Shown: piece by piece, positions 2,139 through 11,541 of the stretch | How positions within the stretch are numbered: the first letter of the stretch is position 1 | Layout of the letters: each line of letters opens with the position of its first letter | From: a virus | Lineage: Duplodnaviria; Heunggongvirae; Uroviricota; Caudoviricetes | Length of the DNA stretch: 11,541 bases | IMG/VR virus record: IMGVR_UViG_648276671_000001 | Span: 1-11,541 of that record | Reading direction: 5' to 3' (one strand) | The notes under the pieces: model-generated | What the model was told of the DNA's origin: nothing | Databases searched by the model: none | What the model saw: the letters and a program-made list of their open reading frames with translations, nothing else | Made by a program: the position numbers and the translations under genes

Positions 2139-2325
2139 CACATCATGCGCTGTATCGTCGCTGTATTCCCGCATTAACCATGACCGTAGCCCGACAGGGA
2201 ATTCCTTCTGCGTGAGTGTGCGGGAATAATCAAAAACGATGCACACCGGGTTTTACTGTGCTGACAGACGCAGGGTTACCCTCATAGTCGCTTTTCCGGT
2301 GCGATGGTGGAAGAAACCGGGATGT

Positions 2326-2520
2326 TTATTCATCATCACTTTGGATTGATGTATATGCTCTCTTTTCTGACGTTAGTCTCCGACGGCAGGCTTCAATGAC
2401 CCAGGCTGAGAAATTCCCAGACCCTTTTTGCTCAAGAGCGATGTTAATTTGTTCAATCATTTGGTTAGGAAAGCGGATGTTGCGGGTTGTTGTTCTGCGG
2501 GTTCTGTTCTTAGTTGACAT
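2326..2520 (-). CDS. small basic protein (64 aa), YlcI/YnfO-like (DUF3950) candidate
   Basis: Minus-strand ORF MSTKNRTRRTTTRNIRFPNQMIEQINIALEQKGSGNFSAWVIEACRRRL, with a basic N-terminus and a short ribbon-helix-helix-like core. A homologous small ORF lies in the same place near the lambda right end and next to nohD-type terminase genes in E. coli prophages; both statements are from memory. Confidence 0.65.
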   Translation of the reverse strand: MSTKNRTRRTTTRNIRFPNQMIEQINIALEQKGSGNFSAWVIEACRRRLTSEKRAYTSIQSDDE

Positions 2521-2687
2521 GAGGTTGCCCCGTATTCAGTGTCGCTGATTTGTATTGTCTGAAGTTGTTTTTACGTTAAGTTGATGCAGATCAATTAATA
2601 CGATACCTGCGTCATAATTGATTATTTGACGTGGTTTGATGACGTAGATGCACGTTGTGACATGTAGATGATAATTATTATCATTTT

Positions 2688-2886
2688 GCGGGTCCTTTCC
2701 GGCGATCCGACAGGTTACGGGGCGGCGACCTCGCGGGTTTTCGCTATTTATGAAAATTTTCCGGGGAAAATCATGTCGGTACTTCTCGAACATAACTATT
2801 TGTTTTTTCTAATATCGAATCCGTAAAGGTCCGACATGAAAACGCCTAAAAAAGTCATTTTCGGGCACTTTCATGTCGGCCCCTGT
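2688..2886. promoter_or_regulatory. cos: cos site: lambda-type right end/cosQ region (2688-2719), cosN with the 12-nt cohesive end GGGCGGCGACCT (2720-2731), and a non-lambda cosB (about 2763-2886)
   Basis: 2688-2760 matches the lambda right-end/left-end junction as I recall it (GGGTCCTTTCCGG.GATCCGACAGGTTACG | GGGCGGCGACCTCGCGGGTTTTCGCTATTTATGAAAATTTTCCGG). Downstream of that the sequence diverges from lambda and carries three copies of TCATGTCGG. Confidence 0.85.
2771..2879. repeat. three 9-bp TCATGTCGG repeats in cosB, candidate terminase small-subunit binding sites (R3-, R2-, R1-like)
   Basis: TCATGTCGG at 2771-2779 (+), its reverse complement CCGACATGA at 2831-2839, and TCATGTCGG at 2871-2879 (+). 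These lie about +51, +111 and +151 from the cosN cohesive end, with the middle copy inverted and an AT-rich spacer (2780-2830) between the first two, the same architecture as lambda R3-I1-R2-R1. Confidence 0.6.
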
Positions 2887-2906
2887 ATTTATTGTGAGAC
2901 TGTTTC

Positions 2907-3426
2907 ATGAAGGTTAATAAAAAGAAACTTGCCGAAATTTTCAACGTGGATCCGCGAACGATTGAACGCTGGCAGTCTCAGGGACTCCCTTGCGTCTCCG
3001 GAGGTGGTAAGGGCGTTGAATCTGTATTTGATACCGCCATGGCAATTCAGTGGTATGCGCAGAGGGAAGCTGATATCGAAAATGAAAAACTCCGTAAAGA
3101 GGTTGAGGATTACAGGGCTGCCAGCGAGGCAGATCTCCAGCCTGGGACTATTGAGTACGAACGCCATCGACTTACGCGTGCGCAGGCTGACGCCCAGGAG
3201 CTGAAGAATGCCAGAGACTCCGCAGAAGTGGTGGAAACCGCATTCTGTACTTTCGTGCTGTCACGGATCGCAGGTGAAATTGCCAGTATTCTTGACGGGA
3301 TCCCTCTCTCGGTACAGCGGCGTTTTCCGGAACTGGAAAACCGACATGTTGATTTCCTGAAACGGGATATCATCAAAGCCATGAACAAAGCAGCCGCGCT
3401 GGATGAACTGATACCGGGGTTGCTGA

Positions 3427-3452
<26 letters not shown>
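2907..3452 (+). CDS. Nu1: terminase small subunit (Nu1-like); the N-terminal DNA-binding domain resembles the NohA/phage-21 type, the C-terminal part is lambda-like
   Basis: 181 aa. From about residue 75 ([57 protein letters not shown]...) it matches lambda gpNu1 as I recall it. The N-terminus ([29 protein letters not shown]) instead resembles the NohA/NohD-type prophage proteins. Confidence 0.9.
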
Positions 3453-7132
<3,680 letters not shown>

Positions 7133-7152
<20 letters not shown>

Positions 7153-8452
7153 TCTCCCGCATATTGCCAGCATGGCTTTTAATGAGCCGCTGATGCTTGA
7201 ACCCGCCTATGCGCGGGTTTTCTTTTGTGCGCTTGCAGGCCAGCTTGGGATCAGCCGCCTGACGGATGCAGTATCCGGCGACAGCCTGACTGCCGGAGAG
7301 GCACCCGCGGCGCTGGCGTTATCCGGTGATGATGACGGACCACGACAGGCCCGCAGTTATCAGGTCATGAACGGCATCGCCGTGCTGCCGGTGTCCGGTA
7401 CGCTGGTCAGCCGGACGCGGGCGCTGCAGCCGTATTCGGGAATGACCGGTTACAACGGCATTATCGCCCGTCTGCAACAGGCTGCCAGCGATCCGATGGT
7501 GGACGGCATTCTGCTGGATATGGACACACCGGGCGGGATGGTGGCGGGAGCATTTGACTGTGCTGACATCATCGCCCGTGTGCGAGACATAAAACCGGTA
7601 TGGGCGCTGGCCAACGACATGAACTGCAGTGCAGGTCAGCTGCTTGCCAGCGCCGCCTCCCGGCGTCTGGTCACGCAGACCGCCCGGACAGGCTCCATCG
7701 GCGTCATGATGGCTCACAGTAATTACGGTGCTGCGCTGGAGAAACAGGGCGTGGAAATCACGCTGATTTACAGCGGCAGCCATAAGGTGGATGGCAACCC
7801 CTACAGCCATCTACCGGATGATGTCCGGGAAACACTGCAGTCCCGGATGGATGCAACCCGCCGGATGTTTGCACAGAAGGTGTCGGCATATACCGGCCTG
7901 TCCGTGCAGGCTGTGCTGGATACCGAGGCTGCAGTGTACAGCGGTCAGGAGGCCATTGATGCCGGACTGGCTGATGAACTTGTGAACAGTACCGATGCGA
8001 TCACCGTCATGCGTGATGCACTGGATGCACGTAAATCCCGTCTCTCAGGAGGGCGAATGACCAAAGAGACTCAATCAACAACTGTTTCAGCCACTGCTTC
8101 GCAGGCTGACGTTACTGGCGTGGTGCAAGCGACGGAGGGCGAGAACGCCAGCGCTGCGCAGCCGGACGTGAACGCGCAGATCACCGCAGCGGTTGCGGCA
8201 GAAAACAGTCGCATTATGGGGATCCTCAACTGTGAGGAGGCTCACGGACGCGAAGAACAGGCATGCGTGCTGGCCGAAACCCCCGGTATGACCGTGGAAA
8301 CGGCCCGCCGTATTCTGGCCGCAGCACCACAGAGTGCACAGGCGCGCAGTGACACTGCGCTGGATCGTCTGATGCAGGGGGCACCGGCACCGCTGGCTGC
8401 AGGTAACCCGGCATCTGATGCCGTTAACGATTTGCTGAACACACCAGTGTAA
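7133..8452 (+). CDS. C: head maturation protease / minor capsid protein gpC (S49/ClpP-like)
   Basis: GTG at 7133 preceded by GAGGAGGAG. Product starts VTAELRNLPHIASMAFNEPLMLEPAYARVFF, 439 codons, matching lambda gpC. Overlaps the 3' end of B by 20 nt, as in lambda. The upstream extension to 6998 in the ORF track is not the real start. Confidence 0.9.
7847..8452 (+). CDS. Nu3: scaffolding protein Nu3, nested in-frame within the 3' part of C
   Basis: Internal in-frame ATG at 7847 (MDATRRMFAQKVSAYTGLSVQ...), 201 aa, sharing the stop of C. This is the lambda C/Nu3 nested arrangement. Confidence 0.7.
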   Translation: MDATRRMFAQKVSAYTGLSVQAVLDTEAAVYSGQEAIDAGLADELVNSTDAITVMRDALDARKSRLSGGRMTKETQSTTVSATASQADVTGVVQATEGENASAAQPDVNAQITAAVAAENSRIMGILNCEEAHGREEQACVLAETPGMTVETARRILAAAPQSAQARSDTALDRLMQGAPAPLAAGNPASDAVNDLLNTPV

Positions 8453-8461
8453 GGGATGTTT

Positions 8462-8794
8462 ATGACGAGCAAAGAAACCTTTACCCATTACCAGCCGCTG
8501 GGCAACAGTGACCCGGCTCATACCGCAACCGCGCCCGGCGGATTGAGTGCGAAAGCGCCTGCAATGACCCCGCTGATGCTGGACACCTCCACCCGTAAGC
8601 TGGTTGCGTGGGATGGCACCACCGACGGTGCTGCCGTTGGCATTCTTGCAGTTGCTGCTGACCAGACCAGCACCACACTGACGTTCTACAAGTCCGGCAC
8701 GTTCCGTTATGAGGATGTGCTCTGGCCGGAGGCTGCCAGCGACGAGACGAAAAAACGGACCGCGTTTGCCGGAACGGCAATCAGCATCGTTTAA
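8462..8794 (+). CDS. D: head decoration protein gpD
   Basis: 110 aa from the ATG at 8462 ([27 protein letters not shown]...), matching lambda gpD. The ORF track begins two codons earlier at 8456. Confidence 0.9.
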
Positions 8795-8811
8795 CTTTAC
8801 CCTTCATCACT

Positions 8812-8836
8812 AAAGGCCGCCTGTGCGGCTTTTTTT
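8812..8836 (+). terminator. GC-rich hairpin followed by a T7 run in the D-E intergenic region (terminator/attenuator-like)
   Basis: GCCGC (8816-8820), loop CTGT, GCGGC (8825-8829), then TTTTTTT (8830-8836). The same element is present between D and E in lambda, from memory. Confidence 0.5.
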
Positions 8837-8849
8837 ACGGGATTTTTTT

Positions 8850-9875
8850 ATGTCGATGTACACAACCGCCCAGCTGCTGGCGGCAAATGAGCAGAAATTT
8901 AAGTTTGATCCGCTGTTTCTGCGTCTCTTTTTCCGTGAGAGCTATCCCTTCACTACGGAGAAAGTCTATCTCTCACAAATTCCGGGACTGGTAAACATGG
9001 CGCTGTACGTTTCGCCGATTGTTTCCGGTGAGGTTATCCGTTCCCGTGGCGGCTCCACCTCTGAATTTACGCCGGGATATGTCAAACCCAAGCATGAGGT
9101 GAATCCGCAGATGACCCTGCGTCGCCTGCCGGATGAAGATCCGCAGAATCTGGCGGACCCGGCTTACCGCCGCCGTCGCATCATCATGCAGAACATGCGT
9201 GACGAAGAGCTGGCCATTGCTCAGGTCGAAGAGATGCAGGCAGTTTCTGCCGTGCTCAAGGGCAAATACACCATGACCGGTGAAGCCTTCGAACCGGTTG
9301 AGGTGGATATGGGCCGCAGTGCGGCGAACAACATCACGCAGTCCGGCGGCACGGAGTGGAGCAAGCGTGACAAGTCCACGTATGACCCGACCGACGATAT
9401 CGAAGCCTACGCGCTGAACGCCAGCGGCGTGGTGAATATCATCGTGTTTGACCCGAAAGGCTGGGCGCTGTTCCGTTCCTTCAAAGCCGTCAGGGAGAAG
9501 CTGGATACCCGTCGCGGCTCTCATTCCGAACTGGAGACAGCGGTAAAAGACCTGGGCAAAGCGGTGTCTTATAAGGGAATGTATGGCGATGTGGCCATCG
9601 TCGTGTATTCCGGACAGTACGTGGAAAACGGCGTCAAAAAGAACTTCCTGCCGGACAACACGATGGTGCTGGGTAACACTCATGCACGCGGTCTGCGCAC
9701 CTATGGCTGTATTCAGGATGCGGATGCATTGAGTGAGGGTATTAATGCGTCTCCCCGTTATCCGAAAAACTGGAAGACATCCGGCGATCCGGCGCGAGAG
9801 TTCACCATGATTCAGTCAGCACCGCTGATGCTGCTGGCTGATCCTGATGAGTTCGTGTCCGTTCAACTGGCGTAA
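8850..9875 (+). CDS. E: major capsid protein gpE
   Basis: 341 aa from the ATG at 8850 (MSMYTTAQLLAANEQKFKFDPLFLRLFFRESYPFTTEKVYLSQIPGLVNMALYVSPIVSGEVIRSRGG...), matching lambda gpE. The ORF track starts upstream at 8823. Confidence 0.95.
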   Translation: MSMYTTAQLLAANEQKFKFDPLFLRLFFRESYPFTTEKVYLSQIPGLVNMALYVSPIVSGEVIRSRGGSTSEFTPGYVKPKHEVNPQMTLRRLPDEDPQNLADPAYRRRRIIMQNMRDEELAIAQVEEMQAVSAVLKGKYTMTGEAFEPVEVDMGRSAANNITQSGGTEWSKRDKSTYDPTDDIEAYALNASGVVNIIVFDPKGWALFRSFKAVREKLDTRRGSHSELETAVKDLGKAVSYKGMYGDVAIVVYSGQYVENGVKKNFLPDNTMVLGNTHARGLRTYGCIQDADALSEGINASPRYPKNWKTSGDPAREFTMIQSAPLMLLADPDEFVSVQLA

Positions 9876-9877
9876 TC

Positions 9878-9900
9878 ATGGCCCTTAGGGGCCATTTTCT
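9878..9900 (+). other. perfect 7-bp stem hairpin followed by a U-rich tract just after the E stop
   Basis: ATGGCCC-TTAG-GGGCCAT (9878-9895) followed by TTTCT. Candidate 3' stabiliser or attenuator at the boundary between the highly expressed capsid gene and downstream genes. Confidence 0.45.
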
Positions 9901-9916
9901 CTCTGTGGAGGAGTCC

Positions 9917-10312
9917 ATGACGAAAGATGAACTGATTGCCCGTCTCCGGTCGCTGGGTGAGCAACTGAACCGTGATGTCAGCCTGACGGGGACGAAAGAA
10001 GAACTGGCGCTCCGTGTGGCAGAGCTGGAAGAGGAGCTTGATGACACGGATGACGGAGCCGGTCAGGACTCGTCTGTCAGCCCGGAAAATGCGCTGACCG
10101 GACATGAAAATGAGGTGGTATCAGCACAGACGGATACCGTGACTGATACGGCTGCTCTGGTCACGGTTGTGGCACTGGTGACGCTGCATACCGATGCACT
10201 TCACGCCACGCGGGATGAACCTGTGGCATTTGTGCTGCCGGGAACGGCGTTTCGTGTCTCTGCCGGTGTGGCAGCCGAAATGACAGAGCGCGGCCTGGCC
10301 AGAATGCAATAA
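9917..10312 (+). CDS. FI: DNA packaging protein gpFI
   Basis: ATG at 9917 preceded by GGAGGAG. Product MTKDELIARLRSLGEQLNRDVSLTGTKEELALRVAELEEELDD...RGLARMQ matches lambda gpFI. Confidence 0.9.
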   Translation: MTKDELIARLRSLGEQLNRDVSLTGTKEELALRVAELEEELDDTDDGAGQDSSVSPENALTGHENEVVSAQTDTVTDTAALVTVVALVTLHTDALHATRDEPVAFVLPGTAFRVSAGVAAEMTERGLARMQ

Positions 10313-10323
10313 CGGGAGGCGCT

Positions 10324-10677
10324 GTGGCTGATTTCGATAACCTGTTCGATGCTGCCATTGTCCGCGCCGATGAAACGATACGCGGGTACATGGGAACGTC
10401 AGCCACCATGACATCCGGTGAGCAGTCCGGCGCAGTAATACGTGGTGTTTTTGATGACCCTGAAAATATCAGCTATGCCGGACAGGGCGTGCGCGTTGAA
10501 GGCTCCAGCCCGTCCCTGTTTGTCCGGACTGATGATGTGCGGCAGCTGCGGCGTGGAGACACGCTGACCATCGGTGAGGAAAACTTCTGGATAGACCGGG
10601 TTTCGCCGGATGATGGTGGAAGCTGTCATCTCTGGCTTGGGCGGGGCGTACCGCCTGCCGTTAACCGTCGCCGCTGA
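10324..10677 (+). CDS. FII: head-tail connector / head completion protein gpFII
   Basis: GTG start at 10324. 117 aa (MADFDNLFDAAIVRADETIRGYMGTSATMTSGEQSGAVIRGVFDDPENISYAGQGVRVEG...) matching lambda gpFII. Confidence 0.9.
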   Translation: MADFDNLFDAAIVRADETIRGYMGTSATMTSGEQSGAVIRGVFDDPENISYAGQGVRVEGSSPSLFVRTDDVRQLRRGDTLTIGEENFWIDRVSPDDGGSCHLWLGRGVPPAVNRRR

Positions 10678-10688
10678 AAGGGGGATGT

Positions 10689-11267
10689 ATGGCCATAAAA
10701 GGTCTTGAGCAGGCCATTGAAAACCTCAGCCGTATCAGCAAAACGGCGGTGCCTGGTGCCGCCGCAATGGCCATTAACCGCGTTGCTTCATCCGCGATAT
10801 CGCAGTCGGCGTCACAGGTTGCCCGTGAGACAAAGGTACGCCGGAAACTGGTAAAGGAAAGGGCCAGGCTGAAAAGGGCCACGGTCAAAAATCCGCAGGC
10901 CAGAATCAAAGTTAACCGGGGGGATTTGCCCGTAATCAAGCTGGGTAATGCGCGGGTTGTCCTTTCGCGCCGCAGGCGTCGTAAAAAGGGGCAGCGTTCA
11001 TCCCTGAAAGGTGGCGGCAGCGTGCTTGTGGTGGGTAACCGTCGTATTCCCGGCGCGTTTATTCAGCAACTGAAAAATGGCCGGTGGCATGTCATGCAGC
11101 GTGTGGCCGGGAAAAACCGTTACCCCATTGATGTGGTGAAAATCCCGATGGCGGTGCCGCTGACCACGGCGTTTAAACAAAATATTGAGCGGATACGGCG
11201 TGAACGTCTTCCGAAAGAGCTGGGCTATGCGCTGCAGCATCAACTGAGGATGGTAATAAAGCGATGA
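10689..11267 (+). CDS. Z: tail completion protein gpZ
   Basis: 192-aa ORF (MAIKGLEQAIENLSRISKTAVPGAAAMAINRVASSAISQSASQVARETKVRRKL...) matching lambda gpZ. Confidence 0.9.
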   Translation: MAIKGLEQAIENLSRISKTAVPGAAAMAINRVASSAISQSASQVARETKVRRKLVKERARLKRATVKNPQARIKVNRGDLPVIKLGNARVVLSRRRRRKKGQRSSLKGGGSVLVVGNRRIPGAFIQQLKNGRWHVMQRVAGKNRYPIDVVKIPMAVPLTTAFKQNIERIRRERLPKELGYALQHQLRMVIKR

Positions 11268-11541
11268 AACATACTGAACTCCGTGCAGCCGTACTGGATG
11301 CACTGGAGAAGCATGACACCGGGGCGACGTTTTTTGATGGTCGCCCCGCTGTTTTTGATGAGGCGGATTTTCCGGCAGTTGCCGTTTATCTCACCGGCGT
11401 TGAATACACGGGCGAAGAGCTGGACAGCGATACCTGGCAGGCGGAGCTGCATATCGAAGTTTTCCTGCCTGCTCAGGTGCCGGATTCAGAGCTGGATGCG
11501 TGGATGGAGTCCCGGATTTATCCGGTGATGAGCGATATCCC
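11264..11541 (+). CDS. U: tail terminator protein gpU, 5' part only (runs off the window end)
   Basis: ATG at 11264 overlaps the Z stop (ATGA). Translation MKHTELRAAVLDALEKHDTGATFFDGRPAVFDEADFPAVAVYLTGVEYTGEELDSDTWQAELHIEVFLPAQVPDSELDAWMESRIYPVMSDI matches lambda gpU. No stop within the window. Confidence 0.85.
   Translation, partial: MKHTELRAAVLDALEKHDTGATFFDGRPAVFDEADFPAVAVYLTGVEYTGEELDSDTWQAELHIEVFLPAQVPDSELDAWMESRIYPVMSDI

Follow-up and report, generated by a model that had tools for sequence, protein, structure and literature searches.

A natural lambda/21 mosaic at the cos site and Nu1 gene of a lambda-like Escherichia coli prophage with predicted phage 21 packaging specificity

The cos region and its neighbouring genes

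The DNA analysed here, referred to as the window, is a stretch of 11.5 kb (11,541 nucleotides) and belongs to a lambda-like E. coli prophage; late-region genes are followed there by a cos site and by terminase and head genes. The late-region cargo between positions 404 and 2520 is unlike lambda, to which identity starts only at around position 2309. Its genes encode a phage lysozyme (404-934) and an Rz-type lysis protein (919-1371); next comes a protein resembling Rha/ORF11CD3 antirepressors (1590-2138), and the minus strand holds an ORF of the DUF3950 YlcI/YnfO family (2326-2520). Directly downstream of the Rha-type antirepressor ORF, the segment 2146-2254 is nearer to phage 21 (97%) than to lambda (83%) and forms another small mosaic piece. 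To the right of the cos site, the plus strand carries the gene for the small terminase subunit Nu1 (2907-3452; 181 amino acids), and a frameshifted copy of the gene for the large subunit gpA (3427-5394); they are followed by lambda-type head genes, which include W, B, C, D and E. A promoter and terminator scan of the region 2300-3000 yielded nothing that exceeded the expectation from shuffled sequences.

The packaging-termination subsite cosQ (GGGTCCT) is located at 2690-2696 on the plus strand, as far from the right chromosome end as the cosQ annotated in phage 21 (positions 42902-42908 of 42931 in OL657228). This 7-bp element, which lambda and phage 21 have in identical form, lies about 30 bp upstream of the 12-base cohesive end, as is characteristic of lambda-like cos sites, whose cosN is partly symmetric. 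According to the definition of cosN used here (PMC9026076), this subsite covers 2718-2733 on the plus strand and consists of the 12-base cohesive end GGGCGGCGACCT at 2720-2731 with 2 bp of flank on either side; the left ends of lambda and phage 21 have exactly this cohesive-end sequence.

An earlier sequence-only reading of this DNA had reported three copies of the 9-mer TCATGTCGG to the right of cosN and had proposed that they correspond to R3, R2 and R1, the sites at which the small terminase subunit binds cosB. The three copies are exact and are found at 2771-2779 and 2871-2879 on the plus strand and at 2831-2839 on the minus strand; no further copy is present in the whole window, in which 0.12 copies would be expected, and none of 200 dinucleotide-preserving shuffles contained three. 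R3 and R2 were detected by a repeat finder as a 14-nt inverted pair, which was named I3, R3 and R1 constitute a 22-nt direct pair with a spacing of 100 bp, named D1, and R2 and R1 form a 25-nt inverted pair (2828-2852 and 2858-2882), which is 80% complementary and has only 5 nt between its arms. Since the result of the shuffle test is joined by a similarity that extends past the 9-mers, the repeats can be regarded as real and non-random. The likeness of the flanks is seen upstream of the cores, where TTTCCGGGGAAAATCATGTCGG (2758-2779) and TTTTCGGGCACTTTCATGTCGG (2858-2879) lie 100 bp apart, and more than the 9-mer core may belong to the functional R elements.

The identity of these repeats became apparent from a sensitive DNA search of the segment 2760-3110 against deposited phages, which retrieved phage 21 and with it two records with curated cos annotation. 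From bp 1 through R1, the window and phage 21 are collinear without a single insertion or deletion, and the spacing from cosN is identical; the annotated elements R3, I1, R2 and R1 of phage 21 therefore map directly onto the window, and the TCATGTCGG copies coincide base for base with the annotated R sites, as had been proposed. R3 (AATCATGTCGGTACTT; 2769-2784, plus strand), the predicted critical site for the small subunit, is collinear with bp 50-65 of phage 21 and differs from the phage 21 sequence (AATCGTGTCGGTACTT) at one position, bp 54, which is A here and G in phage 21. R2 (TTTCATGTCGGACCTT on the minus strand; 2826-2841) is inverted with respect to R3 and R1 and is identical to phage 21 R2 (bp 107-122) in all 16 bp. 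R1 (TTTCATGTCGGCCCCTG; 2869-2885, plus strand) is collinear with bp 150-166 of phage 21 and shows two differences. Between R3 and R2, a predicted site for the integration host factor IHF, I1 (AAACAAATAGTTA on the minus strand; 2793-2805), occupies the position of phage 21 I1 (bp 74-86) and matches the IHF consensus WATCAANNNNTTR with one mismatch. The sequence-only reading had anticipated an IHF site between 2780 and 2830, and the position of I1 agrees with this; however, the pattern as such is not enriched in the window (six matches versus 7.3 expected), so that I1 counts as positional evidence only. The resulting order of R3, I1, inverted R2 and R1, with R3 beginning at bp 50, is that of a lambda-like complex cos site, and this layout is typical of lambda-like cosB sites (PMC4669245, PMC9026076).

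The phage-21-type island and the chimeric Nu1

The extent of the relationship to phage 21 was determined in a three-way alignment of the window, lambda and the joined cos of phage 21, which was assembled from the right and left ends of OL657228. A site was considered informative if it distinguishes lambda from phage 21 and the window shares the base of either phage. In the segment 2570-2764, lambda-like sites outnumber 21-like sites by 62 to 5, the ratio is reversed to 18 to 115 between 2765 and 3119, and it returns to 127 to 4 between 3120 and 3447. Thus, a phage-21-type island of 355 bp (2765-3119), which comprises cosB and codons 1-71 of Nu1 on the plus strand and is 87.9% identical to phage 21, is embedded in lambda-like DNA. 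The last lambda-type site to the left of the island is position 2763 (bp 44) and the first 21-type site is position 2765 (bp 46), which places the left joint at the boundary of cosN and cosB, immediately to the left of R3. On the right, the last 21-type site is position 3118 and a long lambda-type run starts at 3122, with an ambiguous zone from around 3101 onwards, and the joint falls between codons 71 and 72 of Nu1. The sequence-only reading had let the match to lambda end at about 2760; the DNA left of the joint is indeed lambda-like, but the divergence starts at 2765. The alignment also bears out that neither cosB nor the N-terminus of Nu1 is identical to lambda.

From 2309 to the end of the window, the DNA outside the island is 95.8% identical to lambda overall and 96-100% identical in nearly every 100-bp bin. 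Over the whole range of 2309-11541, no other departure from lambda comes close to the island in length or depth; the remaining stretches of 100 alignment columns with less than 88% identity are brief. In the terminase and head genes, the DNA identity of the window to phage 21 is only 66-71%, and since the flanks are lambda-like, it is accurate to speak of an otherwise lambda packaging machine. The cosQ and cosN sequences are nearly the same in lambda and phage 21, and assigning them to lambda relies on only four to five diagnostic bases and on the clearly lambda-like DNA upstream of them.

Nu1 matches the Pfam family Phage_Nu1 (PF07471) over profile positions 1-164 of 164 (E = 6.9e-91; 302.6 bits with a cut-off of 30). 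In a six-way alignment, residues 1-71 are 87% identical to gp1 of phage 21 and around 60% identical to lambda Nu1, whereas residues 72-181 differ from lambda at two positions only (I132 and D181). Accordingly, codons 1-71 specify a 21-type winged-helix DNA-binding domain and codons 72-181 the lambda-type part for oligomerisation and gpA binding. The recognition helix (residues 17-24) reads RTIERWQS, as in phage 21 gp1 and in the PDB entry 7LWR, while lambda has RTIQNWQE. The sequence of 7LWR corresponds to residues 1-54 of phage 21 gp1 and the entry was assigned to phage 21 by this sequence identity only; a literature search for the primary description of 7LWR, 7LXS and 7LW0 found none. Phage 21 gp1 and the window protein agree in 49 of their first 54 residues, and four of the five differences (V30, G32, G34 and V37) lie in or beside the wing, where they produce a lambda-like GGGKG wing: the window has SGGGKGVES, phage 21 has SKGSKGIES and lambda has RGGGKGNEV, and the lysine K35 is conserved. 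The solved DNA-binding domain of lambda Nu1 (PDB 1J9I) covers residues 1-68. The right joint therefore lies at the end of this domain, and the swap respects a domain boundary.

According to the sequence-only reading, the first 60 or so residues of Nu1 resemble NohA or phage 21 and the remainder resembles lambda. The relationship of the N-terminal part to phage 21 and that of the C-terminal part to lambda were confirmed; however, the 21-type part extends over about 71 residues and NohA does not belong in this comparison. NohA of the Qin prophage and NohD of DLP12, both in defective lambdoid prophages of E. coli K-12, are Nu1 homologues encoded beside a cos site and are nearly identical to the window protein in their C-terminal part, but their N-terminal domain is that of lambda Nu1 (MEVNKKQLADIFGASIRTIQNWQE...) and their R sites are lambda-type. 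Both were rejected as the source of the N-terminal domain of the window protein.

With the two joints at the boundary of cosN and cosB and at codon 71/72, the supposition of a coherent exchange of cosB and the Nu1 N-domain held up, and the data support the view that a 21-type cosB and a 21-type Nu1 DNA-binding domain were swapped as a unit into a lambda packaging machinery. The flanks are 97-100% identical to lambda while the island is only around 88% identical to phage 21, so that the donor was not phage 21 itself but a relative that is about 12% diverged from it.

The large terminase subunit and the occurrence of the mosaic

The gpA copy of the window matches the Pfam families GpA_ATPase and GpA_nuclease and shares 98% of residues 1-575 with lambda gpA, after which it runs out of frame. 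One A is absent from a homopolymeric run near 5146-5151, which has six As in the window and seven in lambda, in the O157:H7 TR01 prophage and in the Escherichia phage IdasGreatGrand. The frameshifted product has 655 amino acids and lacks the normal C-terminal 66 residues with the coiled-coil and the portal-binding end. The shortened run is either a homopolymer sequencing error or a sign of an inactivated terminase in a defective prophage. The N-terminal, Nu1-binding region of gpA is lambda-type and is paired with a lambda-type Nu1 part (residues 72-181), in agreement with the earlier claim that gpA and the remainder of Nu1 are lambda-like. Over residues 1-80, gpA is 93% identical to lambda, and the differences cluster at residues 8-21.

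These gpA residues are encoded in a divergent patch at 3448-3490, which lies amid lambda-identical DNA and also affects the end of Nu1 (...EQSD in the window versus ...EQSG in lambda); the lambda counterpart of gpA residues 8-21 is VNRLRHFVRAGLRS (also written QVNRLRHFVRAGLRS). The patch variant is common to IdasGreatGrand and the O157:H7 TR01 prophage, where it occurs alongside the 21-type module, and is absent from lambda and the nohD locus. The variant residues 8-21 are close to the N-terminal end of gpA, to which PMC9026076 assigns the small-subunit-binding domain.

Phage 21 (OL657228, M81255) shares with the window the spacing of R3, I1, R2 and R1, the CATGTCGG cores, R2 and the recognition helix. 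It differs in residues 72-182 of gp1 and in gp2, which are around 50-57% identical over the compared parts, and has its own head genes. Lambda (PDB 1J9I, 6HN7), in turn, shares the DNA upstream of cos, cosQ, cosN, Nu1 residues 72-181, gpA and the head genes (96-100%), whereas its R sites are of the CGTTTCC type and its Nu1 N-domain is only about 60% identical. The closest counterpart of the whole architecture is lambda-21 hy51, a hybrid from the Feiss laboratory, which contains cosB of phage 21 and a small-subunit gene whose 5' half derives from gene 1 and whose 3' half derives from Nu1 (PMC4669245, PMC9026076). The hybrid is viable and 21-specific and works with lambda TerL and lambda heads (PMC4669245, PMC9026076), and it serves as a '21-specific helper' (PMC4669245); the combination of a 21-type cosB with a gene-1/Nu1 chimera is therefore known to work. 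Like the window, hy51 combines a 21-type cosB, a chimeric small-subunit gene and lambda gpA. In hy51, however, around 600 bp of the left end were replaced and the crossover lies about half-way through the gene, whereas the 21-type piece of the window is natural, stretches from bp 46 to codon 71/72 and stems from a donor that is about 12% different from phage 21. Since the 21-type piece starts only at bp 46, cosN of the window keeps its lambda-diagnostic bases. The view that the locus is a natural counterpart of the lambda/21 hybrid exchange, put forward in the sequence-only reading, is thus matched by hy51, which has the same architecture. An explicit description of the natural hybrid was not found in a literature search, which returned only the laboratory hybrids hy51, hy33 and N15 hy4 (PMC4669245, PMC9026076); PMC4856287 contained no pertinent information.

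In the collection of complete E. coli genomes, a 358-bp island sequence was found at an identity of at least 95% in 568 records, including O157:H7, O26 and O121 strains, and roughly one in ten complete E. coli genomes has the same mosaic. In a second class of 815 records, the best match to the island has 80-90% identity; the inspected copies of this class represent the phage 21 allele proper, and some of its records are partial matches only. For a 651-bp query across both joints, 1138 of 5426 genomes had matches that cover 80% or more of the query. Among evenly spaced matches that were listed, about one in eight reached at least 97% in both identity and query coverage, O157:H7, O26, O121 and O103 strains among them. 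The exact 181-amino-acid Nu1 sequence occurs on at least 1000 contigs and in a protein cluster of 837 members, which is named 'terminase small subunit'. Carriers of the phage 21 allele were considered as further hybrids, namely Lambda_4C10, PhiR57_1 and a prophage of E. coli IAI39, but were rejected because all three have a full 21-type gp1 of 182 amino acids. Their large subunit is a 21-size gp2 in Lambda_4C10 and PhiR57_1 and a truncated pseudogene in IAI39, and no second, independent joint was found among these inspected carriers.

The only deposited phage with the allele of the window is Escherichia phage IdasGreatGrand (PP925829.1), which was isolated from swamp mud. It is 99.5% identical to the window from cosQ rightwards and encodes an identical Nu1, while the DNA left of around 2688 is unrelated. 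The lambdoid prophages of O157:H7, O26, O121 and O103 strains (TerS WP_000867498.1) contain the same mosaic with 99.1% identity across both joints. In IdasGreatGrand and these prophages, Nu1 is identical to the window protein or one residue off, and unlike in the window, gpA is intact with 641 amino acids. The identical Nu1 and the intact gpA ORF of IdasGreatGrand suggest that the module works in a living phage. In the deposited annotation of IdasGreatGrand, the large terminase gene appears as two entries, one for a 'hypothetical protein' (3782-3925) and one, in shortened form, for the 'terminase large subunit' (3922-5667), although an uninterrupted ORF of 641 amino acids with a GTG start, equivalent to lambda gpA, spans 3742-5667.

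Predicted packaging specificity and its alternatives

Phage 21 packaging specificity means that 21-type DNA is preferred to lambda-type DNA more than 1000-fold in vivo. Feiss and colleagues reported that the discrimination between lambda and phage 21 is carried by residues 20 and 24 of TerS and by bp 56 and 59 of R3, and that E24 of lambda clashes with the G:C pair at bp 56 of the phage 21 R3 site (PMC4669245). At all four positions, the window is in the phage 21 state: residue 20 of Nu1 is E and residue 24 is S, where lambda has Q20 and E24, and bp 56 (position 2775) and bp 59 (position 2778) of R3 are both G, where lambda has T and C. Moreover, bp 55-63 of R3, the segment reported to contact the DNA-binding domain (PMC9026076), are identical to phage 21. 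From these observations, it is very probable that the cos and Nu1 region of this lambda-like E. coli prophage is a natural lambda/21 mosaic with predicted phage 21 specificity. Points that speak against the assignment are the DNA identity of only about 88% to phage 21 and the differences in five of 54 Nu1 residues, at bp 54 of R3 and at two bases of R1.

We infer the binding of Nu1, the packaging specificity and the function of this copy from the sequence and from the established biology of lambda and phage 21 (PMC9026076). By this analogy, IHF would bend the DNA at I1, and a dimer of 21-type Nu1 DNA-binding domains would recognise the CATGTCGG core in R3 and in R2, the inverted site, while R1 would serve as a putative accessory site. 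The lambda-type C-terminal part of Nu1 would hold the lambda-type gpA over cosN, where gpA would introduce staggered nicks that generate the 12-base cohesive ends. Taken together with the biology of both phages, the mosaic suggests that such a phage should package its DNA with the specificity of phage 21, while gpA and the head proteins are those of lambda.

The weakest alternative is that the three repeats are chance matches or serve a regulator that is not involved in packaging. Their number far exceeds the expectation for exact 9-mers, they share the layout of lambda-like cosB sites, and their collinearity with the R sites annotated in phage 21, which includes the distance from cosN, effectively refutes this explanation. 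It also seems very unlikely that the specificity of the module is distinct from that of both lambda and phage 21, a reading that could draw on the wing sequence, which differs from that of phage 21, and on the deviating bases in R3 and R1; the recognition helix, bp 55-63 of R3 and all 16 bp of R2 are those of phage 21, and K35 is conserved. Likewise, because the recognition helix and the contacted bases equal those of phage 21, there is little probability that the combination of a GGGKG wing with a 21-type helix and the variant gpA residues 8-21 creates a packaging specificity, or an interface for terminase assembly, that departs from the plain '21' type. If it did, the wing and gpA variants could alter the susceptibility to cross-packaging or to the Rpp proteins of phage-inducible chromosomal islands (PICIs), and this could help to explain the spread of the allele in poly-lysogenic O157, O26 and O121 lineages. 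The Rpp proteins of PICIs capture the DNA-binding domain of the small subunit.

More weight belongs to the reading, still a rather improbable one, that the mosaic is real but arose in another direction, with lambda being the recombinant and the present configuration being older, or with the island representing a third, independently diverging lineage. The moderate identity of the island to phage 21 next to near-identical flanks would fit such a history, and no parent was found that joins this allele to a non-lambda C-terminal part, Lambda_4C10, PhiR57_1 and IAI39 being carriers of the phage 21 allele. The steps in identity at 2764/2765 and at around 3120, however, are abrupt, which is a signature of recombination rather than of gradual divergence, and either direction of the exchange would leave the nature and the working of the module unchanged. 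The alternative to be taken most seriously, although it is on balance unlikely, concerns this copy: the prophage would be defective and its cos/Nu1 module a dead relic, since gpA has lost its 66 C-terminal residues. The run of As is one base short, the frame leaves that of lambda gpA after residue 575, and the lost C-terminus of TerL holds the coiled-coil helix and the portal-binding tether (PMC9026076); because of the frameshift, the prophage may not package anything. On the other hand, homopolymers often lose a single base through errors of sequencing or assembly, the other compared head genes are 96-100% lambda-like with no further disruption noticed, and a 21-specific phage residing in the same cell could still use the cos site in trans.

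A natural lambda/21 mosaic with predicted phage 21 specificity is thus the preferred interpretation. As the mosaic has a laboratory equivalent in the lambda-21 hybrid and is carried by roughly one in ten complete E. coli genomes, it is an ordinary finding: it is already known in kind, as the natural and very common counterpart of a classic laboratory hybrid, and it opens no new question, the architecture having been known for decades from laboratory hybrids and the sequence being abundant in databases. It provides a natural illustration of textbook modularity, in which cosB and the N-domain of the small subunit are exchanged together while the C-terminal part stays matched to the large subunit. 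Lambda-like prophages whose protein is labelled just 'terminase small subunit' can differ in packaging specificity, which has a bearing on predictions of how the many lambdoid prophages that reside together in pathogenic E. coli cross-package and interfere with one another.
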